Source: Candidatus Liptonbacteria bacterium (GTDB lineage Bacteria; Patescibacteriota; Minisyncoccia; UBA6257; 2-01-FULL-56-20). From it: 64,000 bases of DNA. A model generated the notes under the pieces. That model searched no databases, had not been told where the DNA came from, and worked only from the letters and a program-made list of their open reading frames with translations. Where the stretch lies: the NCBI GenBank assembly GCA_016867315.1, contig VGJV01000001.1, forward strand, positions 34,863-98,862, written 5' to 3'. This document shows positions 27,481-57,593 of the stretch, piece by piece (position 1 is the stretch's first letter; every line of letters starts with the position of its first letter). A program made the position numbers and the translations under genes.

Positions 27481-27575
27481 ATAAATAATTGCAACTTATG
27501 ACTTGACCGATGACAAGAGAATACAAGAAAATCGTATTTCCGTCAATCGCTCGTCTAACTTCTAATGGTTAATAG

Positions 27576-30683: not shown

Positions 30684-30690
30684 AAGATAT

Positions 30691-31419
30691 TTAAGCTTCG
30701 TATAACTTGTAACCGACTTTCTCACCGTCCTCGTAGAACATCTTTACCGTTTCCTGCGAAAGTGTGTACAGATCATAATCCAACTTTTCTAATTTTTTCA
30801 AAATATCCGGAGTTACCGTTACGATGTGGCAACCCATTTTTTCAGCCTGGAGAATATTCAGAAGCTCCCGTGTGCTCGCCCAAAGAAGTTCCGCGACGGA
30901 ATTCGATGCTAGGATTTTTTTTGCCTCTTCCATATACGGCAACGGATCTCTTCCGGTATCCGCGATCCGGCCAGCAAACACCGAGACTATAGAGGGCACC
31001 TTCGGAGAAAGCACCGCGGCCACTTCTTTTACCTGCTCTACCGTAAGAATTGCGGTTACATTTACTTTCACTCCTTTCTCCACGAGTTTTTTAATCAACG
31101 GCGCAGAGGATTCTTTCTTGGTGTTCATCACTGGAATTTTCACGTAGACATTGTTCGCCCAGGAATTGATGAGCATAGCCTGCCGCTCCATCTCCACAAA
31201 ATCGTCGGAGAACACCTCAAAAGAAATGGATTTCCCGGTAATCGAGGCGAGTACGTCTTTCGCAAAAGCGGCGTAATCGGTTACTCCTGCTTTCCGCATG
31301 AGCGTGGGATTCGTGGTGAGCCCCTGGATATACGGCTTTGACGCAAGCTCCACCATACTTGCCTTCTCGGCGCCATCCGCAAAAATTTTTATGCGTAACT
31401 CTTCAATTTTCCTACTCAT
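30691..31419 (-). CDS. tal: transaldolase / fructose-6-phosphate aldolase family (short form)
   Basis: TTNPTL motif, Schiff-base lysine region VYVKIP; about 240 aa. Confidence 0.8.
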   Translation of the reverse strand: MSRKIEELRIKIFADGAEKASMVELASKPYIQGLTTNPTLMRKAGVTDYAAFAKDVLASITGKSISFEVFSDDFVEMERQAMLINSWANNVYVKIPVMNTKKESSAPLIKKLVEKGVKVNVTAILTVEQVKEVAAVLSPKVPSIVSVFAGRIADTGRDPLPYMEEAKKILASNSVAELLWASTRELLNILQAEKMGCHIVTVTPDILKKLEKLDYDLYTLSQETVKMFYEDGEKVGYKLYEA

Positions 31420-31427
31420 ATTTTAGT

Positions 31428-35363: not shown

Positions 35364-36413
35364 TTATCCCAACCCAATTTTTTTAAATATTTCTCTGAAG
35401 CGGGCTTCGTAGGTGTGCTCTTGTAAGGTGCGCGCATATCCAGCCTCCCTTATTCGCATTCTTTCTTCTGAATGTCCCAGGAAATACTTTATTTTTTCGA
35501 TGCATTCAGGGGGAGTTTTGAAAAAAACCATCTCCTTATCAGGTTCATAATACTTTTCTATGCCTTCTACGTAGCTCGAGAGCGTGAAGGCGCGTGAGCC
35601 GGCGAGCTCAAAGGGCCTGGCGTGAATGTGAGGAATTTTAAAATGCATCCAGCTCTTAAAATTGTCTCTGAAGTGAAAATCTGGAACCACTTCATTCAAA
35701 GATTTTTTCAGGAAAAGACGGGCGAGTACTTTTGGATGCGTGAGCGCCGGCCGATCCGCAATATTCAAATTTATCTTGCTGTGTGCAAATATTCGGAGAA
35801 GTTCCTCATGAGACACGCGTCCTCCGGGCCAGCCCACTCCAAATGCTCTCACCTCTATTCCCACCTCCGCGAGGATTTTAAACAATCTCGCGCGGGGAGG
35901 TTTATATTGCCCCACAAAACTTACGTCTATATCTTGGGGTAGATTTTCTATAGGATAAAAATCTCGCGTGTTACAGGCCCATTGAGAATGGAATACGTTT
36001 TCTAAACCGCTAGATTTATACCAACCTACCGCCTGCAACGAAGTGGTTACCGCGAGGGATAGCACCGGGGCATAGTGGCGAGAGTAGTTCCAAAAACGCC
36101 AATAATCATCCGCGAACCAGCCTACTATAGGAATATGGAGCTCATCTCTTACCCGGCGGAGCGTCTCGGGTAGGAGCTCATCAGTATGCATAAAGAGGAA
36201 TACGAGTGCGGGCTTTTCTTGCTGTACCGCTTTAAAAAAAGCAGCTTGAAAATGCTCTCGTCCCATCTCCAATATAGGGTCGAAAGGAAATTCGACCACT
36301 TCTATTCCCTCCATCCCTTGGAGCGCCCGGAAGAAGCTTTGATATTCAAAACTCATCCCCCGCCTTTTAGGATCGTATCTCTCTTTTTGCACTCCTCCAT
36401 ATAACACCTTCAT
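35364..36413 (-). CDS. glycosyltransferase, CgeB/DUF3880-like (GT-B C-terminal half)
   Basis: C-terminal ARPFELAGSRAFTLS pattern typical of GT4/CgeB-like transferases. Confidence 0.45.
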   Translation of the reverse strand: MKVLYGGVQKERYDPKRRGMSFEYQSFFRALQGMEGIEVVEFPFDPILEMGREHFQAAFFKAVQQEKPALVFLFMHTDELLPETLRRVRDELHIPIVGWFADDYWRFWNYSRHYAPVLSLAVTTSLQAVGWYKSSGLENVFHSQWACNTRDFYPIENLPQDIDVSFVGQYKPPRARLFKILAEVGIEVRAFGVGWPGGRVSHEELLRIFAHSKINLNIADRPALTHPKVLARLFLKKSLNEVVPDFHFRDNFKSWMHFKIPHIHARPFELAGSRAFTLSSYVEGIEKYYEPDKEMVFFKTPPECIEKIKYFLGHSEERMRIREAGYARTLQEHTYEARFREIFKKIGLG

Positions 36414-37492
36414 GTGTTTTTGAAATATTCGTTAAAAAGGCCGATCATATCCGCCGCAAACTGTTCTTGCGTAAAACGTGCAAATGCTTCGGAGGCCATA
36501 AAGGTATTAATGTTCCGAATATACCCATTGTAGGTTTCTTCGTCCATGGAACTCAAGAATCGCTCCAAGTCTTCCCAATTTTGAAACTTCCGAAAATCAA
36601 TAAAACAGCTTGAAGGGATGTAGTCCGTTATATCAGGAGCCCCCCAATACACGGGGATACAGCCCGCCGCCATGGAGTCAATAATTTTTTCAGTAACCCA
36701 CCCTCCGAAGATGCAGTTCTCGAAGCAGATTGAGAACTTATATTGCTGGAGTACCGGATACTTATCATCAATTGCTCCCCTCCACGCAATACCCACTGCC
36801 CGCCTCCACTCCCTTCCTCGGCGCCCCCACGAGAACCTGATCGGCATATCCCAGCCCACCCCGTAGAGATCGAAGCCTTCTCTTTTCGCAAAATGACGGA
36901 TCGCATCCAAACGATCAATGTAGAGTTCTCGATTTTCAAACGTGGGAAGGGGGTGAATCGCGTGTGCGATCGTTACATATGCTCTTCTCAGAGGATGCAC
37001 GCGCGCATTGCCGCTTATCATAGTGAGGAATTTTCTTTTTGAAAATCCGCCTGGAACTTCCGTGCCTTTCGCATACGGCTGAGGAGAGATAAAACTTCTA
37101 AATTTGGTTCGCGGAGAGGCGAAGGACTCCGCTCCCTTCGGCATCAATGTGTAATCGTAAGGAGCCGTAAGTTTTGCCAAATTCCAATAAAACCTGCAGG
37201 CATATAAAGGATGCTCGAATCCCATCAGAATTGCCGGATGAGCGCCAGCCGCAATTACCTGATCCGCACTGCTTCCCAACGTGGCATTCCGCCACAGAAT
37301 TGACCCAGGAAATTCAGTCGGCTGTGCAAGATAACGATCGGCGGTTATGAGGTCAATACCCTCCTTTTTGCACTCTTCGTAAAGATGGCACATCGCCCAA
37401 CCATGCCGATTGTTTCCAATGTTTTTCCTGTCAAAAAGTTTATTTTCCCGCCCGAGCGGCCCCGCCACATCGAGCACCACGACTTTCCTCAT
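36410..37492 (-). CDS. GT10-family alpha-1,3-fucosyltransferase-like glycosyltransferase
   Basis: YKFSICFENCIFGGWVTEKIIDSMAAGCIPVYWG matches the FucT signature YKFxLxFENSxxxxYxTEK; 4-nt overlaps with both neighbours. Confidence 0.6.
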   Translation of the reverse strand: MRKVVVLDVAGPLGRENKLFDRKNIGNNRHGWAMCHLYEECKKEGIDLITADRYLAQPTEFPGSILWRNATLGSSADQVIAAGAHPAILMGFEHPLYACRFYWNLAKLTAPYDYTLMPKGAESFASPRTKFRSFISPQPYAKGTEVPGGFSKRKFLTMISGNARVHPLRRAYVTIAHAIHPLPTFENRELYIDRLDAIRHFAKREGFDLYGVGWDMPIRFSWGRRGREWRRAVGIAWRGAIDDKYPVLQQYKFSICFENCIFGGWVTEKIIDSMAAGCIPVYWGAPDITDYIPSSCFIDFRKFQNWEDLERFLSSMDEETYNGYIRNINTFMASEAFARFTQEQFAADMIGLFNEYFKNT

Positions 37493-38496: not shown

Positions 38497-39270
38497 TTAT
38501 TTTCGTTCCGCATATATTACGCTCGTACGCGCATCAAAATCAGTGGAATATCCCGCTTCATTTAAAAAACTTAAGAATTCTTCTATGCTCATTTTCCCAT
38601 GATGCCATTCAAGCGTGATGGTTTTGATCCTAGAGAAAATCTCTCGCGGAGCGTTCATAAGCAACGGAACTTCCGTTCCTTCGCAGTCTATTTTCAAATA
38701 CTCACACTCAAGAATATTGTTGGCCCTAAAGACATCTTCCAACGTAATACATTCCACTTGAAGAGATTTAGCTCCGTGCCCTTCGAGATCAGGAAGCAGG
38801 GTTCCACCTCCTCTATTTCTGTCGTCCCAATATAAGGAAGCGCTTCCCCGATGGTCGCTTACTGCCAATTTCCAGGGTTTTACCCTTTCCTCTAATCCAT
38901 TTTGTCGCACATTTTCTTCGAGCACCGCGAAGTTTGCCGGAAGCGGCTCATACGCATAGACGCGCACCGAAGGTGATACTTTCGCTACTTTTACCGAGAA
39001 CACTCCGATGTTCGCTCCGATGTCGATTACCACTCCCCCGTTTTGCAGTCGAGAGAGAAATCGATCATATACTTTCGTGTTCCAAATTTCGTTTACCGCG
39101 CGGGGATCGGTGGTATTCGTATTTACCGCATACCGAATCCCGTTCCAAAACCGAAGCACAATTTTTTTATCTCGCAGCCATCCAAACCGCTCAAAAAAAT
39201 ATACCCAGGCATTTTGATAGGTACAGAGGGCGAACCAAGCCTCATGGGCTAATCGCAGTATTTTCTCCAT
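38497..39270 (-). CDS. FkbM-family SAM-dependent methyltransferase (start moved to MEKILRL)
   Basis: VIDIGANIG SAM motif; FkbM-like C-terminal region; long ORF N-terminus has non-coding character. Confidence 0.7.
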   Translation of the reverse strand: MEKILRLAHEAWFALCTYQNAWVYFFERFGWLRDKKIVLRFWNGIRYAVNTNTTDPRAVNEIWNTKVYDRFLSRLQNGGVVIDIGANIGVFSVKVAKVSPSVRVYAYEPLPANFAVLEENVRQNGLEERVKPWKLAVSDHRGSASLYWDDRNRGGGTLLPDLEGHGAKSLQVECITLEDVFRANNILECEYLKIDCEGTEVPLLMNAPREIFSRIKTITLEWHHGKMSIEEFLSFLNEAGYSTDFDARTSVIYAERK

Positions 39271-39319
39271 AATGTTCTTTGAAAATCTAACGTATTCCGT
39301 GCTATTCTTCAACCGTTCT

Positions 39320-40189
39320 ATGCAGAAAAATGAAGTATGCGCAGTTATAGTCACCTGGAACTCAGCGGGAGTTGTCGAGCGCAGCCTTCCTGCAATTGCT
39401 CCCCAAGTAGCCGAGGTATTTGTAGTGGATAACGGCTCTGCGCCGGAACATTTTGCCTCCCTTCTCGAAGCGGTCAAAAATTATTCCAACGTGCATATTT
39501 CGAGAAATGAGGAGAATCGAGGAATTGCCGTGGCGTTGAATCGCGGCGCCGAGGAGGCAATAACGAAAGGTTACCAATGGATCGTGACCTTAGACGACAA
39601 CGGGAAAGCCGCGCCGGATATGGTGGAAAAACTTTTTACCGCGTATGAGGCACTCACCCCCGAAGACCAGTTTGGCATCGCGATTGTGGCACCGAACATA
39701 TCCAATCTCAAAGGCCCCACCTATCCATCGGGGTCCGCTTTTTTGGTGCCTACCACTCCTACCACCGGCCAACTCGTTAAATCCGAGGCGTGGCAGAAAA
39801 TAAAAGGTTATAAAGAGGACCTTTTTATAGCCTGCGCCGATCACGAATTTTGTTTTCGGATGCTTGCGCATGGATACCGCACCCTCCTCGTCCCTACCGC
39901 CCTACTCTTTGCTACTGCGGGACCTAAACCTGCAATACGCCAGTTGCTTTGGAAAAAATTTGTAGTCCCTCACTACACGCCGGACCGTTACTACTATATG
40001 TATAGGAACAGTGTGTATCTTTATCTCACTTATTGGCGCTATGTTCCGAAATGGATTTTTAAAAATATCGTTTCTAATATTTTGAGTTTTATCAAAATCC
40101 TGCTCTACGAAGAAAAACGCCTTCAAAAGATTTGGATGATCGCGCGCGGGAACTGGGACGGCCTCCGAGGGCGGCTTGGGAGGCTTTAG
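39320..40189 (+). CDS. glycosyltransferase family 2 (start moved to MQKNEV)
   Basis: CAVIVTWNS, VFVVDNGS, TLDDNG motifs; divergent from FkbM gene across a 49-bp AT-rich spacer. Confidence 0.75.
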   Translation: MQKNEVCAVIVTWNSAGVVERSLPAIAPQVAEVFVVDNGSAPEHFASLLEAVKNYSNVHISRNEENRGIAVALNRGAEEAITKGYQWIVTLDDNGKAAPDMVEKLFTAYEALTPEDQFGIAIVAPNISNLKGPTYPSGSAFLVPTTPTTGQLVKSEAWQKIKGYKEDLFIACADHEFCFRMLAHGYRTLLVPTALLFATAGPKPAIRQLLWKKFVVPHYTPDRYYYMYRNSVYLYLTYWRYVPKWIFKNIVSNILSFIKILLYEEKRLQKIWMIARGNWDGLRGRLGRL

Positions 40190-41119: not shown

Positions 41120-41572
41120 TTATCTGGATTGTACGGTCCACACATCCCCCCACCCAAAAGGATCGAAACGCTTGTCGTCTGCCCGAGATTCGTTGGTCGT
41201 TGCATTCGAAGCGCAGATCAAAACCGTGTTCGGCTCGAGGGATACCCAGCCATTCGCAAAACCGGGAGGAATCACAATTACCTGATTTTTGCGTTCGGAA
41301 CTTATAAACGTAAATTTTTCTTCCGGGTTTTTAGGATTGACCGCCACGAATTTTGCAGCTCCCGCCACAATCCCGAAGATTTTCCACTCTTTTTCGTGAT
41401 AGTGAAACCCTCGCACCACATTCGCCGCATGATTGTATACATAATATACCCGCTTAATTCCTCCCATCGCTTTGAAAAGTTCCGGATTTTTCTCGGCATC
41501 CAAAAAAGGCGAGAATACGCCCCGATCATCGGCAAATACAGCTCCTTCGAAGGCCTGAGGTTTCTTTTCCAT
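41120..41572 (-). CDS. cupin-fold nucleotide-sugar isomerase/epimerase (FdtA/WxcM/RmlC-like)
   Basis: 150 aa; RGFHYHEK His pair as in sugar 3,4-ketoisomerases. Confidence 0.55.
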   Translation of the reverse strand: MEKKPQAFEGAVFADDRGVFSPFLDAEKNPELFKAMGGIKRVYYVYNHAANVVRGFHYHEKEWKIFGIVAGAAKFVAVNPKNPEEKFTFISSERKNQVIVIPPGFANGWVSLEPNTVLICASNATTNESRADDKRFDPFGWGDVWTVQSR

Positions 41573-42522
41573 TAGAACGAGTACTGCGAGAGATGTTTCG
41601 CGTTCGAGTACGCGCTGTGACCGATGTTTTTCATTCTTTTCTCTTTTACCAGCGTCACAAACTCCCGCACTCCATATTCTACATCCCGATCGGTGGGAAG
41701 CGTGAGTACTCCGTCTTTCAAAGCCTTCGCGAAACTCACTCGATAGTTTCTTTTGTCTTCCCGGAACTGTCCCGCGTACTGCAAATCACAACCCGTGATG
41801 GCCTGTACCTTTTTGGCAATTTCCTCCACACTGAAATTCTGCGTGGCTACGTTATAGACTCCCTTCAAGGGCGAGTCGAGGGTGGAGACGATCACTTTTG
41901 CAATATCGCGCACGTGAATATTCGGCCGCCACTGACTGCCTCCGAATACCATAATTTTCCCTTTCGCTGCGGCGTTTGTCGCAAAGGTGTTAATCATCAA
42001 ATCCGTCCGAGGCCGGCTGAATGTATCCGAGATTCCGAACGCGGTTCCCAAGCGCAAGATCACCGCGTTTTTCTTCAAAAGATATTTTTCCGCATCCACC
42101 TTAGTTACGCCATAGAGCGATACCGGGGCAGTGTCATGCTCCTCTGTTGCTTCTTCTTCGCGATGGCCGTAGACCGAACAGGTGGAGGTGAATATAATCC
42201 GACCGTCGAAATTTTCAGAGAGCCACTTGGGCGCAAGCTCATTGATCTCGACCGCGGCTTCGGGGTGAATCGAACAGGCTCCATCCCCCACAATCGCGGC
42301 GAGCCAAATCACGTGCGAATATTCGGGGAGAATTTTTTTTAAAAGTTCTTTATCCCGCACATCGCCGTACACAAAATCCACGGGCTTCAAATACCGTTCT
42401 TCGTATACCAAACTGTCGAACACCGTGAAGGGAATTTTTTTCTCGAGAAGTTCGTCGGTAACGGCACCGCCCACATAGCCTGCGCCACCCACTACGAGCA
42501 CCCGTTTTATATTCGAATTCAT
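41572..42522 (-). CDS. NAD-dependent epimerase/dehydratase (SDR extended; start moved to MNSNIKR)
   Basis: VVGGAGYVGG, YGVTK (YxxxK). Confidence 0.75.
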   Translation of the reverse strand: MNSNIKRVLVVGGAGYVGGAVTDELLEKKIPFTVFDSLVYEERYLKPVDFVYGDVRDKELLKKILPEYSHVIWLAAIVGDGACSIHPEAAVEINELAPKWLSENFDGRIIFTSTCSVYGHREEEATEEHDTAPVSLYGVTKVDAEKYLLKKNAVILRLGTAFGISDTFSRPRTDLMINTFATNAAAKGKIMVFGGSQWRPNIHVRDIAKVIVSTLDSPLKGVYNVATQNFSVEEIAKKVQAITGCDLQYAGQFREDKRNYRVSFAKALKDGVLTLPTDRDVEYGVREFVTLVKEKRMKNIGHSAYSNAKHLSQYSF

Positions 42523-42560: not shown

Positions 42561-43625
42561 CTACGTCAACGACTTGGCCCACTCAATTGTGCGCTCCAGG
42601 CCCTCGTCAAAAGAAGTGAGGGGGAACTTTCCCATTTCCTTTTGGATTTTCGAGAGGTCGAGTTTCACGACTTGCGGTTCCCTGCCAATGTGCCGCAGTG
42701 TGGACTTTTTCTTGGGTACCACTACGGAGGCACCACATTCTTTTCCAATTTTTTTCGCAAGTTCCCGAATGCTCAAACTGTCTTTTCCTCCTACGTTATA
42801 CACCATTTCCTTCCCGTGAAATCCCGCGTAGAGAATCATTGCGATCACGTCCGCGATGTAGCCGTAGGTTTTGACTGCCCGGCCCTCATCGAGGAGCGCG
42901 ATCTGTTTTCCTTCGAGCGCTTTTCGGATAAAGTCGCTCATCACGCGCGTGTCTGTCCGAGAAAGTCCTGGTCCGTAGACATGCGAGATGCGCACGATTT
43001 TGGCCGTAATCCCGAAATGGCTGGCATAGAACGCGGAGAGCGATTCTCCTAACCGCTTGGATTCTCCATAGATCGCGCGCGGGGTGTGGAGCGGCGGATT
43101 GCCGTTGTAGGTTTCTTTTACCGGAAGCTCCGCCGCAGGAATATCTCCATATACTTCCGCAGAGCTAAAAAAAATAAACCGGCCTCGGCTTTTCCGCGCA
43201 TGCTCAAGCAGACTTTGTGTCGCCGCTACATTCACCGCCACAGTGGAGCTGGGATTCTCCAAAAATTTAGCTGGCTGGCCGTACCCAGCGCCATGAAAAA
43301 TCACATCCCATCGGCCTTCTAGAGCAAACGGACGAGATAAATCTTTTTTTATGAAACGGATTTCTTTTTGGAGGAGAAGCTCTTTTAATACCGGCCCTGG
43401 GATTCCTCTGCCAATTCCCACAATCTCACAGGATACGTTTTGGGCCCGCTTTGCAGCTACCAGCGCTTGCACCACATACTGCCCCAGAAAACCAGAGGCT
43501 CCCGTTATCAAAATTTTTTTGCCTTTGAGATCACTCCCCTTTATCCATGGGAGGATCGCCTTACAGTCCTCTTCTATTATGGAAATTCCGCTATTCGCTG
43601 GACTCAATTTTCTTTTTTTTCGCAT
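42561..43625 (-). CDS. NAD-dependent epimerase/dehydratase (UDP-glucuronate decarboxylase-like; start at internal ATG, overlaps upstream gene about 35 nt)
   Basis: ITGASGFLG, YGESK (YxxxK). Confidence 0.7.
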   Translation of the reverse strand: MRKKRKLSPANSGISIIEEDCKAILPWIKGSDLKGKKILITGASGFLGQYVVQALVAAKRAQNVSCEIVGIGRGIPGPVLKELLLQKEIRFIKKDLSRPFALEGRWDVIFHGAGYGQPAKFLENPSSTVAVNVAATQSLLEHARKSRGRFIFFSSAEVYGDIPAAELPVKETYNGNPPLHTPRAIYGESKRLGESLSAFYASHFGITAKIVRISHVYGPGLSRTDTRVMSDFIRKALEGKQIALLDEGRAVKTYGYIADVIAMILYAGFHGKEMVYNVGGKDSLSIRELAKKIGKECGASVVVPKKKSTLRHIGREPQVVKLDLSKIQKEMGKFPLTSFDEGLERTIEWAKSLT

Positions 43626-45432
43626 GGGTTCCCGGCATCGCTGGATTTTCCCAGCCTTCGACCGGCTCGATAAACATATTCTTGCGGAATTCTTCCCGAG
43701 GAAGATAGGGGTACATATCCTCGATTGGAGTTTTCCATCCGAAGATGCGGGGTTCGTACTGGAACCATTCTCCGCAGTCCACATCACAGACCACCGATTC
43801 CTTACTCGCGAGGACTTTTTGGATTTTGGCTTTTATTTCTTTATTCGTTTTCACGGTTTCCGTACGTACTTTGTAGGCTTTGGCAATTGCCATAAAATCC
43901 GGCACTACATACCCGGATTGAGGCTCGGAAGCTTCGAATCTTCCATCCACATTCGTTTCTTGGAACGCTTTTATGATCCCATATGAATGGTTATTGATAA
44001 TGAACGTTTTCACATTTATTCCATAGGTGCGGAGCGTCTGTAATTCCTGAAGGTTCATGTTGAAGCCTCCATCTCCGATGATGCACACCACTTGCCGCTT
44101 CGGAGCCGCGAACCACGAACCCATAGCCCCCGCGAAAGAAAAACCCATGGGAGAGTTCCCATTATTCGTGAGGTAACGCTGTCCGTTTTGCGTCTCGAAC
44201 GCGTGATTACTCGTCACAATGTTGCCTCCGCAATCAGTTACGAATATGCCGTTACTTTTCATGAGTTCGGAAAGCGTACGAATGAAGACGTAGGGATTGA
44301 CGTGTTTTTTCTGCGTGTAAAATTCAGGCCTCACCGGATCATACTTTTCTTTCCACTCCATCACCTGTTTGGTCCACTTGGAGAAATCGGGAAGTTTTAC
44401 CCCTTTAAGCTTCATCTCGAGTCTTTCCAAAAATAATTTGGCGTCGCAGTAGATGCTTTCATCAAAAGGCACTTGCTGCCATTTTTTCTTCGTAAGGGCT
44501 TCATCCGCATCTACGAGGTATTTTTTCGCTCCTCGCGCAAAAGTCTTCACATTCCCCCCGGTAATGCGGCCGGAGATCCGGCTCGCGAGAGAAAGAAGCA
44601 GGTCCGAGTTTTGCAAACCGAAGTTTCGGCCTCGCCCCCCGTACGTACCAATCCTGCCGCCATAATACTCGTAGTCAGAAGGCACGAGGTCCAGCGCATT
44701 CCAGGTCGGAAACATGGGAATTTTGAGCTTCCTTCCTACTTTCTGCAGCAACTCCACTGCTCCCGCCCAAAAAATTCCGCCTCCCACGAGCATTACCGGC
44801 CTCTTCGCTTTGCGAAGGTCGCGGAGAAAGGCGTCGATGGTGGCATCCACCTGCGTCAGAGAGTAGGAAGGTCGAGCACTCTTTGCATCGAACCCTTGGA
44901 GGGCGGCGGGATCGATTTCCATCTTTTGCACATTCTGAGGAATGTCTAAAAGCACCGGGCCGGGCCTCCCCTCCTCGGCCATGAATAACGCTTTCTCCAA
45001 CTCATATTTGATGGTGGAGGGGTCCTTCACAAGGGCGGCGTATTTCGTAATAGGTTTTACGATGGAGACAATGTCAGTTTCTTGAAATCCCACCTGCCGG
45101 AGCGCCGGATCAGGACGTAAAAAATCCGAATTTACCTGGCCTGTTATAAAAAGTCCCGGCACTGAATCATAGAAGAAGTTGCCTATGGGGGTTACTAAGT
45201 TCATCCCTCCCGGACCGCTTGTCGCAATTGCTACCCCTGGAAGTTTTTTGATTTTAGCATAGCCCTCTGCAGCAAAGCCCGCGGCTTGCTCATGCATCAT
45301 CACTATATATTTGGTGCGTTTGGCGCGGGTAAACGCGTCAATAATATAGGCATTCGCAGCTCCGGAAACCACGAACATCCGATCAATCCCCCGATCGGCC
45401 AAGTATTGGATTAGAAAATCCGCGAGTTTCAT
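43591..45432 (-). CDS. thiamine-diphosphate-dependent enzyme, acetolactate-synthase-like three-domain architecture
   Basis: ThDP motif GDGGF-N27-NNHSYG, TSGPGGMN N-terminal Pyr-domain motif, 613 aa. Confidence 0.8.
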   Translation of the reverse strand: MKLADFLIQYLADRGIDRMFVVSGAANAYIIDAFTRAKRTKYIVMMHEQAAGFAAEGYAKIKKLPGVAIATSGPGGMNLVTPIGNFFYDSVPGLFITGQVNSDFLRPDPALRQVGFQETDIVSIVKPITKYAALVKDPSTIKYELEKALFMAEEGRPGPVLLDIPQNVQKMEIDPAALQGFDAKSARPSYSLTQVDATIDAFLRDLRKAKRPVMLVGGGIFWAGAVELLQKVGRKLKIPMFPTWNALDLVPSDYEYYGGRIGTYGGRGRNFGLQNSDLLLSLASRISGRITGGNVKTFARGAKKYLVDADEALTKKKWQQVPFDESIYCDAKLFLERLEMKLKGVKLPDFSKWTKQVMEWKEKYDPVRPEFYTQKKHVNPYVFIRTLSELMKSNGIFVTDCGGNIVTSNHAFETQNGQRYLTNNGNSPMGFSFAGAMGSWFAAPKRQVVCIIGDGGFNMNLQELQTLRTYGINVKTFIINNHSYGIIKAFQETNVDGRFEASEPQSGYVVPDFMAIAKAYKVRTETVKTNKEIKAKIQKVLASKESVVCDVDCGEWFQYEPRIFGWKTPIEDMYPYLPREEFRKNMFIEPVEGWENPAMPGTHAKKKKIESSE

Positions 45433-45478
45433 GGCCTCATTGTGGCAGACAAACCTCGAAAACTCAACTTTAAAGGGC

Positions 45479-46639
45479 TTAGTGACTCCCCAGTTCCTTT
45501 ACCGCTTTTTGAATTCTCCGACAGCCTTCACGAAGCTTCACGGCAGCATTTATGGCGTAACAAAGACGCACGTAGTTTTTCCCTGCTTCTCCAAATCCCG
45601 AGCCGGGGCAGACCACCACTCCCGTCGTTCGCAGAAGATGCGCGCTAAACTCATCGCCCGTCATTCCCGTGCGGGATACGTCGATCATGAGATAAAACGC
45701 CCCCTGAGGCTTTGCGAAGTCGAGCTCCGGAATCTTTTTAAGTTCCTCACAGACAATCTCCCGAAGTTTCGTGTATTCCTCCAGATAGACTTTGCTAAAT
45801 TTTTTTCTGCCCTCAAGGGCCGTTACACACGCATCCTGAAGGAACGGCGGCACACACGAAACGATTGTCTGGGAGAGAAGTCCTATTTTTTGAATCACCG
45901 CCTCGGGACCTACCCCATATCCCACTCGCCAGCCAGTCATTGCGAAAGGCTTCGAAAAACCGCTCGTCACAATCACCCGCTCGCGACATTTATCCAAGGT
46001 GCCCACAGAAAAATGCTTTCCCTCGTATACGAAAGGCGCATAAATTTCATCGCTAATAAGAAAACAGTTATGGCGCTTCGCTATGTTGTAAATCGCCACT
46101 AGGTCTTCTTTGGAATATACCGCACCCGTGGGATTCGACGGAGAATTTACTACAATCACCCGTGTTTTTTTAGTAAGCTTTTTTTCTATTTCCCCAGGGG
46201 AGAACCGGAAATTATTTTTATGCGTTACGGGCACGTAGACTCCCCTCAAATTCAGTGTGGCGATTGCTGCGCGATAGGTTACAAACGCCGGATCGGTAAG
46301 AATCACTTCTTCCCCGGGATTCGCGAGCACTGCAAGCAGATAATAGATCAGTGGGTTCGCCCCGGTGGTTACCACCACTTGCCCCAGCGCCGGCTCGAAT
46401 CCATAGTCCTCTCTAAAAACCTTTAGAACGGTCGTGCGTAAGTTATGCTCTCCGAAAGAATCGCCATAATGCGTCCGCCCCTTTTTCAGCGAAGCCACTG
46501 CGGCAGCTTTTACTTCCGAAGGCATTTCGAGGTGCGTATCTCCAATTTCAAAATGAATAATATCTTTTCCTTCCCGCTCGAGCGCTTTCGCTTCCCCCAA
46601 GAGCTTAAACATGGACTGACCCACGATGCGCTCCGCCAT
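45479..46639 (-). CDS. PLP-dependent aminotransferase, class I/II (AspAT fold); start at MAERIV
   Basis: SGFSKPFAMTGWRVGY PLP-lysine motif, NPTG motif. Confidence 0.8.
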   Translation of the reverse strand: MAERIVGQSMFKLLGEAKALEREGKDIIHFEIGDTHLEMPSEVKAAAVASLKKGRTHYGDSFGEHNLRTTVLKVFREDYGFEPALGQVVVTTGANPLIYYLLAVLANPGEEVILTDPAFVTYRAAIATLNLRGVYVPVTHKNNFRFSPGEIEKKLTKKTRVIVVNSPSNPTGAVYSKEDLVAIYNIAKRHNCFLISDEIYAPFVYEGKHFSVGTLDKCRERVIVTSGFSKPFAMTGWRVGYGVGPEAVIQKIGLLSQTIVSCVPPFLQDACVTALEGRKKFSKVYLEEYTKLREIVCEELKKIPELDFAKPQGAFYLMIDVSRTGMTGDEFSAHLLRTTGVVVCPGSGFGEAGKNYVRLCYAINAAVKLREGCRRIQKAVKELGSH

Positions 46640-46658: not shown

Positions 46659-47852
46659 TTATTTCGTCGCATGGAGCAAAGATACGGATATTTCCGTGAA
46701 GAACTCCGCGACGAGCTCCTGGAGTTTTTGCAATCGATCTTCTCCCACGAACTGATTGTTTCCAATATAGAATCCGTGCTCATGCACAAACTCCGCATTC
46801 GGAAACTGCGAAGGATGCGCAAATTTTTTCAGGAACGGCTGCCGCATAAGATTTCCGCTAATCACGGGACGCGATTCGATCCCCGCTTTCCGAATCTTCG
46901 CCTGAAACGCTTCCTTATGCTCTTTTTTATGAAAGAGAAAAGGAAGTGAAAACGAAGAGGTGCCTTCGCGGAACGTGGAGAAATGCAAAAACTCTTTGTA
47001 GGGGGCGAGAATTTCAAGAAACTTCCGGTGATTCTCATTGCGGATTCGGATGTAGCGATCCAGGTGCTTCAATTGCTCGATTCCCAACACCGCATGCAGT
47101 TCCGTGTTTCGAACGTTATATCCTTCCGTCAAAAACAGGAACTGAAAATCGATATCCGGATGTTTTTCTTTATGCGCAGAGTGATACGACTCCGGCAATT
47201 CCCGGGCTAATCCATGCGACCGCTTCAAAACACAAAGTCTGTAGATATCCTCATCGTCCGTGCAAATCATTCCTCCCTCGACAGTTGTCATGTGATGCCC
47301 CCAATAGAAGCTGAAAGAGCCGCAAGAAGAAAGGCTCCCTACCTTTACTCCATCCACCGTGGCTCCATGTGCCTCGCAACAATCCTCCATGAGTTTTATG
47401 TCACGCGCTTCCGCAAGTTTACGGAGACGCTTCATATCTGCGGGGACTCCCAAAAGGTGGGTTATAAATATTGCCCGAGTCTTAGGGGTAATCACCCGTT
47501 CTATTTTTTCATAGTCGAAGGAGAGGTCGGTCAAATTCACGTCCACAAAAACGGGCGTAAGGCCGCATTGAAGCACGGGGGTGATATTCGTGATCCAGGT
47601 TACCGCGGGCACAATGATTTCATCTTTATCGTCCCATCCGTATTTTTCTTTCATCGCGCTCATCATAAGAAGATTCGCGGAGCTGCCGGAGTTCACGAAC
47701 ACGCTATATTTCGAGCCCTGCCAGGCAGACCATGCGCGCTCGAATTCCCGCACTTTTTCAAACTGCGTAAAGCGGGCGGTGGAACGAATAAAGTTCACGA
47801 GTACCTCGATATCTCCTCCTTCTAAAATATTTTCTTGTAGTTTCCAAAACAT
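46659..47852 (-). CDS. DegT/DnrJ/EryC1-family PMP-dependent nucleotide-sugar 3-dehydratase (ColD/E1 type; active-site Lys replaced by His)
   Basis: GSFSFYWGHHMTTVEGG aligns to the aminotransferase SFH..K..GEGG motif with K->H as in ColD/E1; 397 aa. Confidence 0.7.
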   Translation of the reverse strand: MFWKLQENILEGGDIEVLVNFIRSTARFTQFEKVREFERAWSAWQGSKYSVFVNSGSSANLLMMSAMKEKYGWDDKDEIIVPAVTWITNITPVLQCGLTPVFVDVNLTDLSFDYEKIERVITPKTRAIFITHLLGVPADMKRLRKLAEARDIKLMEDCCEAHGATVDGVKVGSLSSCGSFSFYWGHHMTTVEGGMICTDDEDIYRLCVLKRSHGLARELPESYHSAHKEKHPDIDFQFLFLTEGYNVRNTELHAVLGIEQLKHLDRYIRIRNENHRKFLEILAPYKEFLHFSTFREGTSSFSLPFLFHKKEHKEAFQAKIRKAGIESRPVISGNLMRQPFLKKFAHPSQFPNAEFVHEHGFYIGNNQFVGEDRLQKLQELVAEFFTEISVSLLHATK

Positions 47853-47864: not shown

Positions 47865-48824
47865 CTATTTAATTCTTTCTCCCGTCACCCCATCGTAGTG
47901 CGCGGCGTACCACTCATACGCATCCTTCACTCCTTCTTCGAGTTCGATTGCGTGCTTCCATCCTAAGCTGCGCATGCGAGACATATCCATTAACTTTCGC
48001 CCCACCCCATCCGGCTTCGTAGTATCCCAGGTGAGGCGTCCTTCATAACCACTTACCTTACCAATAAGTTCGGCGAGGGCCTTAATGGAAATTTCGACGC
48101 CCGTGCCCAGATTAAAAAGATCTTCCTGCGTATCTGTGTTCATAAGAAACAGGCAGCCGGCGGCGATATCATCTACATGAATAAATTCCCGGTATGGACT
48201 TCCTGTTCCCCACAGCACTACCTCTTTTTTCCCTTGCGTCTTCGCTTCGAAAAATTTTCTAATAAATGCCGGGAGTACATGAGAGTTTTTGAGATCGTAA
48301 TGGTCATTAGGGCCGTAGGCGTTTGACGGCATCACCGAAATGAAATTGGTGCCATATTGCTTGTTGTATGACTGACAGGTCAACACTCCTGCGAGCTTCG
48401 CCACCGCGTAGGGCTTGTTCGTCGGCTCAAGCACCCCTGTTAAGAGATACTCTTCTTTCATGGGCTGCGGGCAATCTTTAGGGTAGGTGCAGGAGCTGCT
48501 CAAAAAAAGCAGTTTTTTCACTGTATGCTCGTAAGATGCATGAATGATATTGTTTTGGATCGCCAGATTCTCATAAATGAAGTCTGCGGGGAAAGTACTG
48601 TTTGCATAAATCCCCCCTACTTTTGCCGCTGCATCAAATACATATTCCGGTTTTTCTTTTTTAAAAAATTCCCCGACTGCTACGGTATTCGTGAGATCCA
48701 GTTCCTCATGGGAGCGCGCCACAATATTCGTATATCCTTCTTTTTGAAGCAGGCGCATGATCGCGGAGCCCACCAAGCCACGGTGTCCCGCCACATAAAT
48801 TTTTGCGCCTTTTCCCATTGCCAT
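47865..48824 (-). CDS. fcl: GDP-L-fucose synthase family (GDP-4-keto-6-deoxymannose 3,5-epimerase/4-reductase; Fcl or ColC-type)
   Basis: [28 protein letters not shown] motifs. Confidence 0.85.
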
Positions 48825-48854: not shown

Positions 48855-49331
48855 TTAAAAGCCTGCGGCGCGAAGGGCTTCTTGAATATATTTGAGGAAA
48901 TTTTTCTCAATTTTAGAAGCCCAGCGGAAATCAGAGCTCTGCGCATCGAGCGCCACGGCGGACTCCTTTTTGACTTCCACTAAACACGTGACTATCGGAG
49001 TATGAGTATTGGTTCCGCGGAAATATCCTCTTGGGGATATAAATTCATAAAAGCCGAGAGGTTCTATAAACTTCCCCGCGAGATTGGTTTCTTCCCTAAG
49101 CTTCCGCACCGCAGTTTGGGCAACTGTTTCATTTTTTAATACTCTCCCGCCGGGAAACCACCAGCTTCCCCGTAGTGGTGGTAGTTTGCGCCTCACCAAC
49201 AGAAATTCCCTTTTCCAATTAACCGCCACTACATCGACGCAAAATATCGGGAGTGTTTTATAAATCTTTCGGTAGAGGGCCGCAGGAATTTTCTCGGAAA
49301 CTATTTTCATAGTGCTTGTATTGTACTCCAA
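48855..49331 (-). CDS. NUDIX hydrolase (GDP-mannose mannosyl hydrolase-like)
   Basis: Nudix box GGRVLKNETVAQTAVRKLREETN; position between fcl and gmd as in gmd-fcl-gmm clusters. Confidence 0.65.
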   Translation of the reverse strand: MEYNTSTMKIVSEKIPAALYRKIYKTLPIFCVDVVAVNWKREFLLVRRKLPPLRGSWWFPGGRVLKNETVAQTAVRKLREETNLAGKFIEPLGFYEFISPRGYFRGTNTHTPIVTCLVEVKKESAVALDAQSSDFRWASKIEKNFLKYIQEALRAAGF

Positions 49332-49429
49332 AACGCAAAGAAGGCATTCCGGACTCTTGGATTTCCAAGAATCGAAATGCCTTCTTATTATTTTTATTTT
49401 CTTTCGTTCCTTTCGGTTGATTGTTGGCG

Positions 49430-50172
49430 TTATTTCATGAGTCCCAACTGGCGGGCGTACTTAAATGTCCCTTGCGTGAGTTCGTCGAGCTGACGCACCC
49501 TTTTAAGGATCATTTCCGGAGTACCTTCGGCTTGGGTCTGAGCCATAGGATGCCCATACGGTACGGGAACATCCATGACTCTGAGTCCCGCCGCGATACA
49601 AGCAATGACCGGGAAGTGAGTGGGATCCCAGGTATCGGGAGCTCCCAGCGCTTCCGGATTGTAGTCCAGGAAATACGGCAGCGCTCTTGGTCCAATCACC
49701 CGCGGGCCGAAGAACATGTCGAGCCACACTCCCGTAGCAAGTCGATAGGCTTCGTTTCCTGCTTGTTCTGTTAAGGTTTGGACTTCGGGTAGGTGACGAA
49801 TCCCTGCGGCATGCGCGAGGGAACGACAAGGTCTGCCTCGCCCGCGAGCACAGGAGCCGCTGCGGTTTCCACGCAGGTTACAAAGCCCACTTTCTCGGGC
49901 TCAAAAAAGACCACCGGATCGTTTTTTGCAAGCTCTCCAGCAACCTTCATTGCCTGCCGTCGACCTGGTCCCAGTTTTCCGGGCGGGTGAGAAATCTCTT
50001 CCACCACCTGCACATGCTGTAGCTTTTCGAATTTCTCCCGATACCACCCCGGAGAACCTCCATCAACCACTACCATTCGATATCCCAATACACTTGCCCG
50101 TTGCACCATCTCATACGCGAGTTGGGAGCGAATATTATTTTTAGGATCGGGGTAGAAAGTGGTGGTAGCCAA
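49430..50172 (-). pseudogene. frameshifted, GC-rich glycosyltransferase-like gene remnant (two ORFs 49771-50172 and 49430-49729 in different frames)
   Basis: The downstream ORF frame stays open far upstream of its GTG and overlaps the upstream ORF tail; VVVDGGSPG motif; local GC clearly above neighbours. Confidence 0.35.
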
Positions 50173-50265
50173 TTTGCTTTCCTTTCTCTCTCAAGAGCGT
50201 CGCTCTTGAGCGCCCAAACTATACCATATTCATATGGTAAATGCAAGGCTCTCTTAGATTTTTCT

Positions 50266-51264
50266 TTAGAGAGTAGCTCCTACCGCTTTACAGTCTGCTT
50301 CCACCATAATGCGTACGAGTTCCGGAAACTTTGTTGTTGCTTCCCACTTAAGTTTTTCTTTGGCCTTCTTCGTATCTGCAATAAGATCATCTACTTCCGT
50401 GGGACGGAGATAGCGAGGATCAAACTCCACGTACTTTTTCCAGTCTCCTAAGCCTGCTACCTTAAACGCTTCGGCTACAAATTCTTCTACGGAGTGAGAC
50501 TCCCCTGTCCCGATTACATAGTCTTCGGGCTTTTCCTGCTGGAGCATTTGCCACATCGCTTCGCAATATTCTGGCGCATATCCCCAATCTCGTTTCGCCT
50601 CGAGATTTCCCAAATAAAGTTTTTTCTCGAGGCCGGCTTTGATGCGCGCTACGCCGCGAGAAATTTTCCTCGTCACAAACGTTTCGCCTCGGCGGGGCGA
50701 TTCATGATTGAAGAGAATTCCATTCACTGCAAAAAGCCCATACGCCTCCCGATAATTCCGAGTCATGTGATAGGCGAACACCTTCGCGGCCGCATAAGGA
50801 CTCCGAGGATAAAAAGGGGTATTTTCGCTTTGAGGAGGAGGGGTGGCTCCAAACATTTCCGAGCTCGATGCCTGATAAAACCTCACTTTCTTTTTGGTCT
50901 CTTTCTCGTAATCCTTGATGGCTTCGAGTATCCGAAGCGCACCGAGGCCCACAATCTCCGCGGTATACTCCGGAATATCGAAGGATACGCGCACGTGCGA
51001 TTGTGCGCCCAAGTTATAAAATTCATCGGGAGCTACTTCATACAAGAGCTTCCGAACCGTGTTCGCATCCGACAAGTCTCCATAATGCAAAATAAAATTT
51101 TTATGCTCCACGTGCGGATCTTGATAAATATGATCTATCCGCGAGGTATTGAAGGTCGAAGCGCGCCGAATTACCCCGTGTACTTCATACCCTTTCTTTA
51201 ATAAAATTTCGGCCAAGTAACTTCCATCCTGACCCGTGACACCGGTAAGCAATGCTTTTTTCAT
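50266..51264 (-). CDS. gmd: GDP-mannose 4,6-dehydratase
   Basis: [19 protein letters not shown]-terminus, [22 protein letters not shown] motifs. Confidence 0.9.
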
Positions 51265-56621: not shown

Positions 56622-57593
56622 TTATGGGCGGGAGGGAGTATTATTCTCCGAACGATTCACTGCGGTTTCGATTTGTTGCCTAACGGATTGGGCCTCATTC
56701 GTCAAAGTTTCTATTCGGTCGGAAAGTACTTCCAGAGGAGAGGCATTATTGGGAGTGAGATCTACAAGATGAAGTGCATAGCGGTAATATCCCTCCCCCA
56801 CCCGCGGCGTAACATCGATCGAGCGATAGGGGCCATCCACCAGGAAAGAGGTGCGGCAATTACCATCTACATTTCTTCCCGCTACTGAAATAGTGGAACA
56901 TGGAACGGGAGTGCTTACTATAGTGTTTGACTCCCTATCGATGGTCAATTTTTCGATGGCGGCTTCCACGACTGCCAGGTGGGGTTTATTTGAAGCGCCA
57001 TTATATAGGAGCCTACTCCGTGAGCGTTCGGTAATAGAGAAATCTTCTATGTAGCCGGGTTTAAAAATTCCCTTAAATGTTCCTATGATGGTGTCTCTGG
57101 GAATATCCGGAGGGGCTTTAATTGCTGTTTCGTTGCCGGCCGGACCGGACGAGTAATAACATGACTCTTTATTTTTTCCGCCTGTTTCCGGACCGCTGCC
57201 GCTCATCATTGCAATGTGGTATGTCTCAGTGGTGATGCATTTGAGATTGTTATGGCGGGGTGATGCAATATTTATTCTTTCTTTGATAAAATCCTCATCA
57301 CCTGATTTCCCAGCAAAAGAGCGTGCCCGGAGGGAATTATGAGGCTTCAGTGTCCAAAGCGATTGAATTGAGTAGTTTTGAGTAAGCGTGAGACAACTCG
57401 TGTCGTTGGTGGGACGCGTTTCTTTTCCGGTAGTCGCGCAACTATAACTACCCGTCTGAGTTTTCGAATAAAAAACCTGATCAATTACTGCTTCTGGTAA
57501 TCCATTCTCGGAGTCGGCGCGCACCGGAGCTGCCCCAGCTGCTGCAATAACGGCGGAGGCGATAGTGACCCCTAAATACCCCATCCATTTCAT
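56622..57593 (-). CDS. hypothetical secreted cysteine-rich protein
   Basis: Signal peptide MKWMGYLGVTIASAVIAAAGAAPVRA; 8 Cys in mature part; no known domain. Confidence 0.5.
   Translation of the reverse strand: MKWMGYLGVTIASAVIAAAGAAPVRADSENGLPEAVIDQVFYSKTQTGSYSCATTGKETRPTNDTSCLTLTQNYSIQSLWTLKPHNSLRARSFAGKSGDEDFIKERINIASPRHNNLKCITTETYHIAMMSGSGPETGGKNKESCYYSSGPAGNETAIKAPPDIPRDTIIGTFKGIFKPGYIEDFSITERSRSRLLYNGASNKPHLAVVEAAIEKLTIDRESNTIVSTPVPCSTISVAGRNVDGNCRTSFLVDGPYRSIDVTPRVGEGYYRYALHLVDLTPNNASPLEVLSDRIETLTNEAQSVRQQIETAVNRSENNTPSRP

Follow-up and report, generated by a model that had tools for sequence, protein, structure and literature searches.

What does an enzyme resembling acetolactate synthase do beside a class-I aminotransferase in an operon for nucleotide sugars? 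The question is raised by a locus of Candidatus Liptonbacteria bacterium (GenBank assembly GCA_016867315.1, contig VGJV01000001.1, positions 34,863 to 98,862 of the forward strand), a stretch of 64,000 nucleotides that we call the window. An initial annotation of this DNA, made from its letters alone, pointed to a thiamin diphosphate (ThDP)-dependent enzyme and an aminotransferase at 43591-46639 on the minus strand, and both genes are indeed present there. We regard it as somewhat probable that they belong to a module that couples an aminotransferase to sugar C-branching, as a variant of the YerE system for yersiniose-type branched sugars. The ColD-like neighbor that had been described is also in place, but the gene order given with it (ColD, ThDP, aminotransferase) must be corrected to ColD, aminotransferase, ThDP. 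The four central genes, in the direction of transcription, are:

46659-47852, minus strand: ColD-type 3-dehydratase for nucleoside diphosphate (NDP)-4-keto sugars, dependent on pyridoxal or pyridoxamine phosphate (PLP/PMP); DegT family, 262 bits
45479-46639, minus strand: class-I aminotransferase, similar to aspartate (AspAT, subgroup Ib) and aromatic (ArAT) aminotransferases, 386 aa from ATG; Pfam Aminotran_1_2, 221 bits
43591-45432, minus strand: ThDP enzyme, predicted YerE-like carboligase, 613 aa; TPP_enzyme_N 105 bits, TPP_enzyme_M 79 bits, TPP_enzyme_C 125 bits
42561-43625, minus strand: extended short-chain dehydrogenase/reductase (SDR) called SDRa, candidate YerF-like reductase of the new branch; Epimerase family, 145 bits

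Only 19 bp separate the ColD-type gene from the aminotransferase gene and 46 bp separate the latter from the ThDP gene, while the start of SDRa overlaps the ThDP stop codon by 35 nt. These short gaps and the overlap are why the four genes are read as one operon. The mechanical open reading frame (ORF) of the aminotransferase runs further than its ATG, to a TTG at 46822.

The ThDP enzyme has a catalytic Glu48 (in MHEQ) and a cofactor motif formed by G453-D454-G455 and then N480-N481, in agreement with the GDG-N27-NN pattern first noted, and E48 and both parts of the motif are invariant across 20 members of its family. In an NCBIfam scan, the best model is the large subunit of acetohydroxyacid synthase (AHAS; TIGR00118), with 388 bits vs a cut-off of 538, and no NCBIfam model for AHAS, Gcl, Xsc or IolD is matched above its curated cut-off. 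When HMMER is run against solved structures, JanthE (8RPH) leads with 324 bits, followed by 5AHK, which we take to be PpYerE, with 283, and plant AHAS with 247. The alignment with JanthE spans residues 2-585. In two neighbor-joining trees (19 and 22 sequences, 200 bootstraps, with few references and with YpYerE, ErwE and MMAR_2332 not among them), the ThDP family, JanthE and 5AHK make up a single clade with 100% bootstrap support, and E. coli IlvB, IlvI and Gcl and Arabidopsis AHAS stay outside. JanthE is the sister of the ThDP family in both (bootstrap 99% in one and 88% in the other). The C-terminal tail PRIFGWKTPIEDMYPYLPREEF is common to the window enzyme, JanthE and other YerE-like enzymes, while AHAS are without it; the pattern shared by JanthE and the ThDP family is P-L/I-E-D-x-x-P-x-x-P-R. 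Within the family the conserved tail includes PIEDMYPYLPREEF and R562, an invariant residue aligned with JanthE K567. In JanthE, a YerE-like enzyme that accepts ketones, K567 lines the active-site cleft (PMC12188165). Because of the AHAS scores below cut-off, the top matches to JanthE and 5AHK, the 100% bootstrap clade and the tail, the ThDP enzyme is predicted to be a YerE-like carboligase and not an acetolactate synthase. The core of the initial annotation, a YerE-like sugar C-branching enzyme working with a ColD-type dehydratase in place of an IlvB/AlsS orthologue, thus stands on the AHAS scores, the tree and the sugar-cluster context.

The stretch of the enzyme that corresponds to the AHAS "RFDDR" motif reads R-I-S-G-R-I-T-G-G-N (residues 285-294). 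Nine of these ten residues are invariant across the ThDP family, Ile286 being nearly so, and the second Arg of the motif is kept in the family and in 5AHK but not in JanthE. In AHAS, this second Arg contacts the 2-keto-acid acceptor.

No ilvC, ilvD, ilvH/ilvN, phosphoenolpyruvate (PEP) mutase or ferredoxin-NADP-type (Fer2/FNR) E3 reductase was found in a scan of the window that covered most ORFs of at least 150 aa, which agrees with the earlier remark that a branched-chain amino acid (BCAA) or phosphonate context is missing. A phosphonate reading of the locus (PEP mutase, phosphonopyruvate decarboxylase and 2-aminoethylphosphonate transaminase) was considered and rejected: the scanned window ORFs include no PEP mutase, and the ThDP enzyme has the full three-domain architecture of the acetolactate synthase type.

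Relatives were collected by scanning one genome per species, taking 10 kb on either side of each locus, with home-made ORF calling and family clustering; the clustering missed a few ColD genes. The scan returned 80 related loci with a ThDP identity of 54-73%, and a protein database holds more than 120 ThDP clusters at 62-73% identity to the window enzyme, as well as an identical protein from a Candidatus Liptonbacteria metagenome-assembled genome. Since Nitrospira dominates the raw locus set, the ThDP proteins were dereplicated at 80% identity, leaving 29 lineages; in 21, both flanks extend for 4 kb or more. The carriers include Patescibacteria, Nitrospira (among them the complete genome of N. 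defluvii), Terriglobia, SAR11, Prochlorococcus, Rhodospirillales, Oligoflexia, and Woese-, Pace- and Nanoarchaeota. Every ThDP locus with enough flanking sequence lies in a nucleotide-sugar cluster. A DegT neighbor is present in 59 related loci, and in all 59 the position of the Schiff-base Lys is occupied by His. Such a replacement marks PMP-dependent 3-dehydratases, so these neighboring DegT proteins can be read as 3-dehydratases; they accompany the ThDP gene in at least 13 of the 21 lineages. GHMP kinase homologues are found with the family in 12 of the 21 and NTP-transferase homologues in seven, and in 15 loci an SDRa homologue comes directly downstream of the ThDP gene. The neighborhood is therefore conserved in relatives, as the initial annotation had asked to be checked: NDP-sugar clusters with His-type 3-dehydratases recur across many phyla. 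Identities of 54-73% across the candidate phyla radiation (CPR), Nitrospira, SAR11, Prochlorococcus and DPANN archaea far exceed what vertical descent would lead one to expect, which implies that the ThDP cassette has probably spread horizontally, also between domains.

The aminotransferase has the expected PLP-lysine motif, SGFSKPF, already recognized in the first reading. Its best solved match is the broad-specificity P. horikoshii ArAT (1DJU, 252 bits), and it is below all NCBIfam cut-offs (at best 310 vs 550). Where the T. thermophilus AspAT has GGK, with the K109 that determines acidic substrates, the window protein has an ArAT-like GAN. Alignment with 1DJU, 1J32 and 1GC3 shows that the PLP Lys, the Asn/Asp/Tyr cofactor triad and the α-carboxylate Arg358 are retained, and N169, D197, Y200, S229-K230, R238 and R358 are invariant in 22 members of its clade, which also has a specific SCVPPFxQ motif. 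Because the Lys, Asn, Asp, Tyr and α-carboxylate Arg are invariant, the substrate is predicted to be an α-amino or 2-oxo acid.

This aminotransferase is a dedicated partner of the ThDP enzyme. A class-I aminotransferase gene lies directly upstream of the ThDP gene in 10 of the 21 dereplicated lineages. The Patescibacteria copies are 62-68% identical to the window protein, those of DPANN archaea 40-45% and those of Nitrospira about 30%; from their sequences, the last appear to be an independently recruited subfamily. The Nitrospira protein was accordingly set aside as an orthologue, being no closer than generic AspATs, and is treated as an analogous class-I partner. In the database, homologues of the window aminotransferase form a tight clade at 63-69% identity, followed by a gap down to 47% or less; the matches suggest that at least 14 of the close homologues share a contig with a ThDP family match. 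When homologues at 40-45% identity were sampled, the next downstream gene encoded a YerE-like ThDP enzyme in six cases out of six. These enzymes have 591-601 aa where complete. For two of them (loci L089 and L091), which are cut by the contig end, the identification comes from BLAST and from the N-terminal sequence. BLAST comparisons, where made, gave 34-36% identity to the window enzyme, and all three sequences added to the tree fell inside the YerE-like clade. Two of the sampled loci, L088 and L090, are canonical CDP-dideoxyhexose clusters with an RfbF-like transferase, an RfbG-like dehydratase and a 437-aa E1-like protein, and L088 also has a Fer2/FAD/NAD E3 reductase. The pair of aminotransferase and YerE-like enzyme is a module that spans CDP/E1 and GDP/ColD contexts. 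A housekeeping AspC/AspAT identity was tried and discarded from the neighborhoods centered on either gene, the sub-equivalog score and the K109 position, where no equivalent exists. The initial annotation had allowed for a housekeeping AspC or HisC without co-conservation; what is found are orthologues, and six sampled homologues of six, that precede YerE-like genes.

What, then, does the aminotransferase bring to the ThDP enzyme? The best-supported role, to which we give about an even chance, is the supply of the 2-oxo-acid donor. It is suggested by the α-amino/2-oxo acid residues, by the position just before the ThDP gene and by the gene that replaces the aminotransferase elsewhere. In five lineages without an aminotransferase, its place is taken by a PanB-like (3-methyl-2-oxobutanoate hydroxymethyltransferase) gene that overlaps the ThDP gene or lies 0-1 bp from it, and whose protein is above NCBIfam PanB cut-offs. 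PanB acts on a 2-oxo acid. The two partners are mutually exclusive: no PanB-like gene co-occurs with a class-I aminotransferase among the ThDP loci. At least one of the three candidates (aminotransferase, PanB or a B12-binding radical S-adenosylmethionine (SAM) enzyme) is found in 17 of the 21 lineages. There is precedent for donor supply from within the cluster, as an adjacent aldolase makes the 2-oxo-acid donor in known YerE-type clusters, and transamination of amino acids gives donors accepted by ErwE and MyGE (PMC9306805).

The PanB-like genes are in Prochlorococcus, Oligoflexia, DPANN archaea and Harrisonbacteria (L068:9170-9991, L056:8991-10001, L075:8767-9699, L054:7176-8039, L060:16250-17107 and L067:12999-14021). 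They are directly upstream of the ThDP gene in L068, L056 and L075, and that of Prochlorococcus scores above the NCBIfam PanB cut-offs. Genes for B12-binding radical-SAM enzymes, which might methylate the donor or the branch, lie beside the ThDP gene in Nitrospira, and in nine of the 21 lineages (for instance L002:8471-9982, or L030:8365-9972 and 11910-13535), and in a Synechococcus locus (L087) two rSAM-SPASM genes flank the aminotransferase-ThDP pair.

The alternative that survives best, although we find it unlikely, keeps the YerE-like branching but draws pyruvate from central metabolism, so that the aminotransferase would only recycle glutamate for ColD or balance 2-oxoglutarate for a Cj1427-type dehydrogenase. 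The chemistry allows it, since ColD-type enzymes use glutamate and release 2-oxoglutarate, as the C. jejuni C3-dehydratase does, and Cj1427 consumes 2-oxoglutarate (PMC10680097); YpYerE prefers pyruvate (PMC12247030), the aminotransferase gene sits between those for ColD and the ThDP enzyme, and a ThDP protein whose conservation is independent of its partner would fit one common donor. However, no dedicated aminotransferase is needed by E. coli ColD or the C. jejuni dehydratase, some aminotransferase-ThDP-SDRa loci have no ColD within 10 kb, and the PanB-like genes that exclude the aminotransferase from its slot have no link with glutamate recycling. The recycling idea had been put forward in the initial annotation as the sole role of the aminotransferase. 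The position upstream of YerE-like genes, in CDP/E1-type clusters too, and the exclusion by PanB point instead to donor supply. The two are hard to separate, in that a transamination which regenerates glutamate always yields a 2-oxo acid as well. With donor supply, an amino acid and 2-oxoglutarate would give glutamate back while the donor is made, and recycling becomes part of the same step.

The second question is which keto sugar receives the donor, and here the rest of the glycan genes are needed. They form a nearly gap-free array of about 27 kb on the minus strand, from about 51264 down to about 24260. Beyond the RmlD-like gene come an FkbM methyltransferase and five minus-strand glycosyltransferases including one of family GT10, then the heptose-supply set with oxidoreductases (24260-32414), to which the last eight lines below belong:

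50266-51264, minus strand: Gmd, GDP-mannose 4,6-dehydratase; TIGR01472, 519 bits vs cut-off 415
48855-49331, minus strand: Nudix hydrolase, weakly similar to GDP-mannose mannosyl hydrolase; NUDIX 61 bits, NF011963 44 bits, sub-cut-off
47865-48824, minus strand: GDP-L-fucose synthase-like SDR (Fcl or ColC-like epimerase/reductase); NF047922, 462 bits vs cut-off 500
41572-42522, minus strand: extended SDR called SDRb, divergent relative of the PDB 6VO6 protein, possible NDP-heptose C4-dehydrogenase/reductase; 6VO6, 124 bits
41120-41572, minus strand: cupin, RmlC-like epimerase or FdtA-like isomerase; PF00908 44 bits, PF05523 35 bits
40238-41113, minus strand: RmlD-like 4-reductase; PF04321 59 bits, TIGR01214 57 bits, sub-cut-off
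36410-37492, minus strand: GT10-family (fucosyltransferase-like) glycosyltransferase, candidate transferase for a GDP-activated 6-deoxy sugar; PF00852, 57 bits
31428-32414, minus strand: HddA-like GHMP kinase
30691-31419, minus strand: transaldolase
29385-30725, minus strand: NDP-sugar dehydrogenase
28387-29388, minus strand: Gfo/Idh/MocA protein
27576-28406, minus strand: SDR
26872-27480, minus strand: GmhA-like SIS protein
26232-26783, minus strand: GmhB-like HAD protein
24260-25072, minus strand: NTP-transferase (HddC-like)

The DegT protein of the window (397 aa, with its gene 1.2 kb upstream of the ThDP gene) matches E. coli ColD (2GMS) best among solved structures, with 242 bits vs 145 for E1 (3BCX), and the His of its FSFYWGHH motif is aligned with ColD His188, the position mutated in H188N (3B8X). 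It is thus classed from sequence as a ColD-type, E3-independent 3-dehydratase. A 3-deoxy-4-keto NDP-sugar is the type of acceptor used by YerE (PMC9306805, PMC12247030). The route we favor for the window, with a probability that falls just short of even, runs from Gmd and ColD to GDP-4-keto-3,6-dideoxymannose. Gmd, above its TIGR01472 cut-off, heads the operon, and the loci closest in architecture (L001, from Terriglobia, and L007) also have Gmd, Fcl-like, SDRa, SDRb and GT10 genes.

Our second choice, possible but rather less probable, is a GDP-3-deoxy-4-keto-heptose that the heptose genes would provide together with an SDRb-type C4-dehydrogenase and ColD. HddA-, HddC-, GmhA- and GmhB-like genes are all in the window locus. 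HddA- and HddC-like genes accompany the ThDP gene in Nitrospira and many other carriers, together with an SDR nearly orthologous to 6VO6 (385 bits in Nitrospira), which we take to be Cj1427. The SDRb of the window reaches 124 bits with 6VO6, the next best match having 65, and it has STCSVYG where the SDRb family has TNSGYG. In vitro, the Cj1427 product serves as a substrate of the C. jejuni C3-dehydratase (PMC10680097). The initial annotation had placed all the downstream genes in one dideoxy-sugar operon. The two SDRs, the cupin and the RmlD-like gene are all present; the cupin is less well described as a ketoisomerase, scoring 44 bits as an RmlC-type epimerase and 35 as an FdtA ketoisomerase, and among solved structures it weakly matches RmlC proteins and a GDP-4-keto-heptose 3-epimerase. 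SDRb, cupin and RmlD-like protein may instead be a heptose epimerization module like Cj1427/Cj1430/Cj1428, separate from the branched sugar.

In two DPANN loci (L078:9527-11554, and L060; family f52), an NTP-transferase, a CBS domain and a GHMP kinase are fused in one 675-aa protein, whose HddC-like and HddA-like functions are separate genes elsewhere.

A third route, for which the indications are weak, has a UXS-like SDRa releasing a 4-keto-pentose. Set out in full, the NDP-sugar dehydrogenase (29385-30725) would make an NDP-uronic acid, from which an SDRa similar to UXS or ArnA would release an NDP-4-keto-pentose for the ThDP enzyme to branch, as proposed for eurekanate. We consider this improbable, even though EvdS6 offers a precedent for a released 4-keto-pentose as the branching acceptor (PMC10338323). 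UDP-glucuronate decarboxylases are the top solved matches of SDRa, led by UXS1 with 112 bits; several Patescibacteria have the compact aminotransferase-ThDP-SDRa trio but no ColD within 10 kb of it, and a gene resembling UDPG dehydrogenase precedes the trio in L005 and L006. However, SDRa has the motifs FSSAEVYG and YGESK, so that the decarboxylase motif STS-E is SSA-E here, and in an alignment with E. coli ArnA the Ser, Glu, Tyr and Lys are kept while the equivalent of R619 is not conserved. The SDR closest to SDRa in L090 (same family, 32% identity) follows the YerE-like gene of a CDP-type cluster where E1 already supplies the acceptor, and across the ThDP family His-type 3-dehydratases are the most consistent partner.

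The dehydrogenase-like gene of L005 (7814-8779) and L006, two Patescibacteria loci, is a truncated member of the UDP-glucose/GDP-mannose dehydrogenase type (family f85, 321 aa, weak Pfam matches), directly upstream of the trio and with no ColD within 10 kb.

Taken together, the C-branching module that we prefer would work as follows, every chemical step being deduced from sequence. Gmd, from its family membership, would convert GDP-mannose into GDP-4-keto-6-deoxymannose. The dehydratase, whose type comes from its sequence and whose chemistry is borrowed from ColD and the C. jejuni C3-dehydratase, would use PLP/PMP and L-glutamate to remove the 3-OH, giving a GDP-3-deoxy-4-keto sugar, 2-oxoglutarate and ammonia. 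The class-I aminotransferase would take an amino acid and 2-oxoglutarate, and return a 2-oxo acid and the glutamate needed by ColD. The ThDP enzyme, judging by its clade and context, would then decarboxylate the 2-oxo acid and add the acyl carbanion to the C4 ketone, creating a tertiary alcohol with a 4-C-acyl branch. SDRa, because of its position, may reduce the branch carbonyl as YerF does, after which a glycosyltransferase of the locus, possibly that of family GT10, would install the sugar in a surface glycan. If the acceptor is instead the GDP-3-deoxy-4-keto-heptose formed through the heptose genes, the SDRb-type C4-dehydrogenase and ColD, that sugar would enter at the ThDP step.

Several observations pull in the opposite direction. 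The second Arg of the AHAS RFDDR motif persists in the ThDP family (as RISGR), the raw identity of the window enzyme is about the same with JanthE (33%), 5AHK (31%) and plant AHAS (32%), and its YerE-like placement depends on neighbor-joining trees with few references from which YpYerE was left out. The ThDP protein is equally conserved with an aminotransferase, a PanB, a radical-SAM enzyme or no partner, and this could mean that the donor is a common one and that the partners act elsewhere. Since the common 2-oxo acids are already produced by free-living carriers, an aminotransferase kept for this purpose would have to act on an unusual amino acid. As for the acceptor, the nearest solved relatives of SDRa are UDP-glucuronate decarboxylases, several close Patescibacteria loci have aminotransferase, ThDP and SDRa genes and neither ColD nor Gmd within 10 kb, and the Fcl-like gene beside ColD could divert the ColD product to colitose.

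Could the aminotransferase act after carboligation, turning the branch carbonyl into an amine and the product into an amino-branched sugar? Gene order does not fix reaction order, and acetyl branches can be modified by reductases, transaminases and oxygenases in secondary metabolism (PMC9306805). Yet the protein is of the class-I AspAT/ArAT type, with Arg358 and the other α-amino-acid residues invariant across its clade, while the carboligation product would be an α-hydroxy ketone without an α-carboxylate; known sugar aminotransferases belong to the DegT family, and an SDR in the YerF position suggests reduction of the carbonyl, not amination. Later amination is for these reasons still more improbable than the pentose route, and no support was found for the "amino sugar" offered as an alternative in the initial annotation.

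The least probable reading is an ordinary acetolactate synthase or 2-oxo-acid decarboxylase forming an Ehrlich- or BCAA-type route with the aminotransferase, in a glycan locus by accident or to make a small acyl or aldehyde substituent: AHAS large subunits are the best-scoring NCBIfam models, JGI annotators name relatives "acetolactate synthase" and raw identity to AHAS is similar to that with YerE-like enzymes, but the AHAS/BCAA reading is largely refuted by cut-offs that are all missed, by exclusion from AHAS (IlvB included) at 100% bootstrap and by a context in which the scanned window ORFs include no small subunit, ilvC or ilvD, more than 80 ThDP loci of unrelated phyla lie in NDP-sugar clusters with 3-dehydratases, and the family occurs in CPR bacteria and DPANN archaea.

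How new would the C-branching module be? By mechanism and phylogeny it would be a YerE-type system. As in YerE/YerF of Y. pseudotuberculosis, which make CDP-yersiniose A, a gene like acetolactate synthase lies in a cluster of the O-antigen type, with a PMP-dependent 3-dehydratase beside it and an SDR reductase (in the window a candidate one) after it, and the proposed reaction is likewise the decarboxylation of a 2-oxo acid and addition to a C4 ketone (PMC9306805, PMC12247030). Unlike in that system, Gmd and the 397-aa E3-independent dehydratase take the place of CDP-glucose, E1 and E3, a dedicated class-I aminotransferase precedes the ThDP gene, and the 613-aa enzyme belongs to a separate subfamily with about 31-33% identity to characterized YerE-like proteins (YpYerE being outside this comparison). 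The new features would be the E3-independent acceptor supply of the GDP/ColD type, the aminotransferase as donor maker and the separate subfamily, which is unusually distributed over CPR bacteria, DPANN archaea, nitrifiers and marine picoplankton. In ErwE/ErwI, MMAR_2332/MMAR_2331 and MyGE/MygI, too, an enzyme of the cluster makes a special 2-oxo-acid donor and a reductase then acts on the branch (PMC9306805), but the donor maker is a pyruvate aldolase; in the window it would be an aminotransferase, and in sister loci a PanB-like and/or a B12-radical-SAM enzyme. Neither PMC9306805 nor PMC12247030 describes a cluster-encoded aminotransferase as donor supplier. In the former (2022), transaminases appear as later modifiers of the branch, and transamination as an alternative biocatalytic route to 2-oxo acids; in the latter, a 2025 review, the words "aminotransferase" and "transaminase" do not occur. 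A literature search for a GDP-linked YerE-type pathway gave nothing relevant (Krug et al. 2024 lying outside its scope).

JanthE, from Janthinobacterium sp. HH01, is the closest solved relative by structure match, tree, tail and the K567/R562 position; it differs in having CDG where the window enzyme has GDG and shares about 33% identity with it, and its physiological substrates are unknown (PMC12188165). Colitose clusters resemble the window in that a ColD-type gene adjoins Gmd and an Fcl/ColC-like reductase, and the C3-dehydratase of C. jejuni HS:5 indicates that such dehydratases also accept GDP-4-keto-heptoses. In the colitose and 3,6-dideoxyheptose pathways, the 3-deoxy-4-keto product is only epimerized and reduced, whereas the window inserts a ThDP carboligase. 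With IlvB, IlvI and IlvG the enzyme shares the fold, the domain order, the ThDP motif and the catalytic Glu, but it has RISGR for RFDDR and an extra conserved C-terminal tail, and it has no regulatory subunit or ilv neighbors.

C-branched higher sugars are rare and hard to detect. To our knowledge, they have been tied to the lipopolysaccharides of pathogens (Yersinia, Pectobacterium, mycobacteria), always through CDP-3,6-dideoxy-4-keto-glucose and aldolase-made donors. The window locus points to a second design, with a GDP/ColD-type acceptor and a donor made by an aminotransferase. A wider proposal, tentative and on balance doubtful, is that unrecognized surface sugars are widespread in CPR bacteria, DPANN archaea, Nitrospira, SAR11, Prochlorococcus and Synechococcus: an amino-acid-derived chain would be joined by a C-C bond to C4 of a GDP-3-deoxy sugar (6-deoxyhexose or heptose) by a fixed pair of aminotransferase and YerE-like enzyme, with PanB or B12-radical-SAM enzymes as alternative donor tailors. 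If this is true, higher-carbon branched sugars exist in microbes that rank among the most abundant and the least cultivable, and an enzyme with 54-73% identity between bacteria and archaea marks a horizontally traded glycan cassette. Unusual cell-surface sugars of uncultivable organisms would be predictable from sequence alone, and such sugars bear on phage and host recognition in episymbionts. The family would also offer ketone-accepting ThDP carboligases, possibly with new donor ranges, for the biocatalysis of chiral tertiary alcohols.

The other genes of the window include pyrimidine genes, GroEL, thioredoxin reductase, RNase Y and RNase J. Seven of the scanned ORFs (183-385 aa) match no Pfam family: four consecutive ones at 5531-9101, and those at 25140-25844 and 56622-57593, all on the minus strand, and one at 17424-17975 on the plus strand. 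Between gmd and the Nudix gene, an interval of about 930 bp (49332-50265) has no recognizable gene; its sole sizeable ORF (49771-50172, 133 aa) starts with TTG and has no Pfam match, and the interval may hold a small unknown gene or else be regulatory. The otherwise minus-strand array is interrupted at 39272-40189 by a plus-strand gene for a GT2 glycosyltransferase. This gene overlaps the FkbM methyltransferase ORF (38497-39477) where the latter has been extended mechanically at its N-terminal end; the true FkbM start probably lies further downstream. The transaldolase is unusual within a glycan operon, and may supply sedoheptulose-7-phosphate in a metabolically reduced CPR bacterium. Finally, in a Sungbacteria locus (L004:12832-17199), the aminotransferase-ThDP-SDRa trio is followed by a 4'-phosphopantetheinyl transferase, an SDR/KR-type reductase and an MBOAT acyltransferase, a gene set that hints at glycan acylation.

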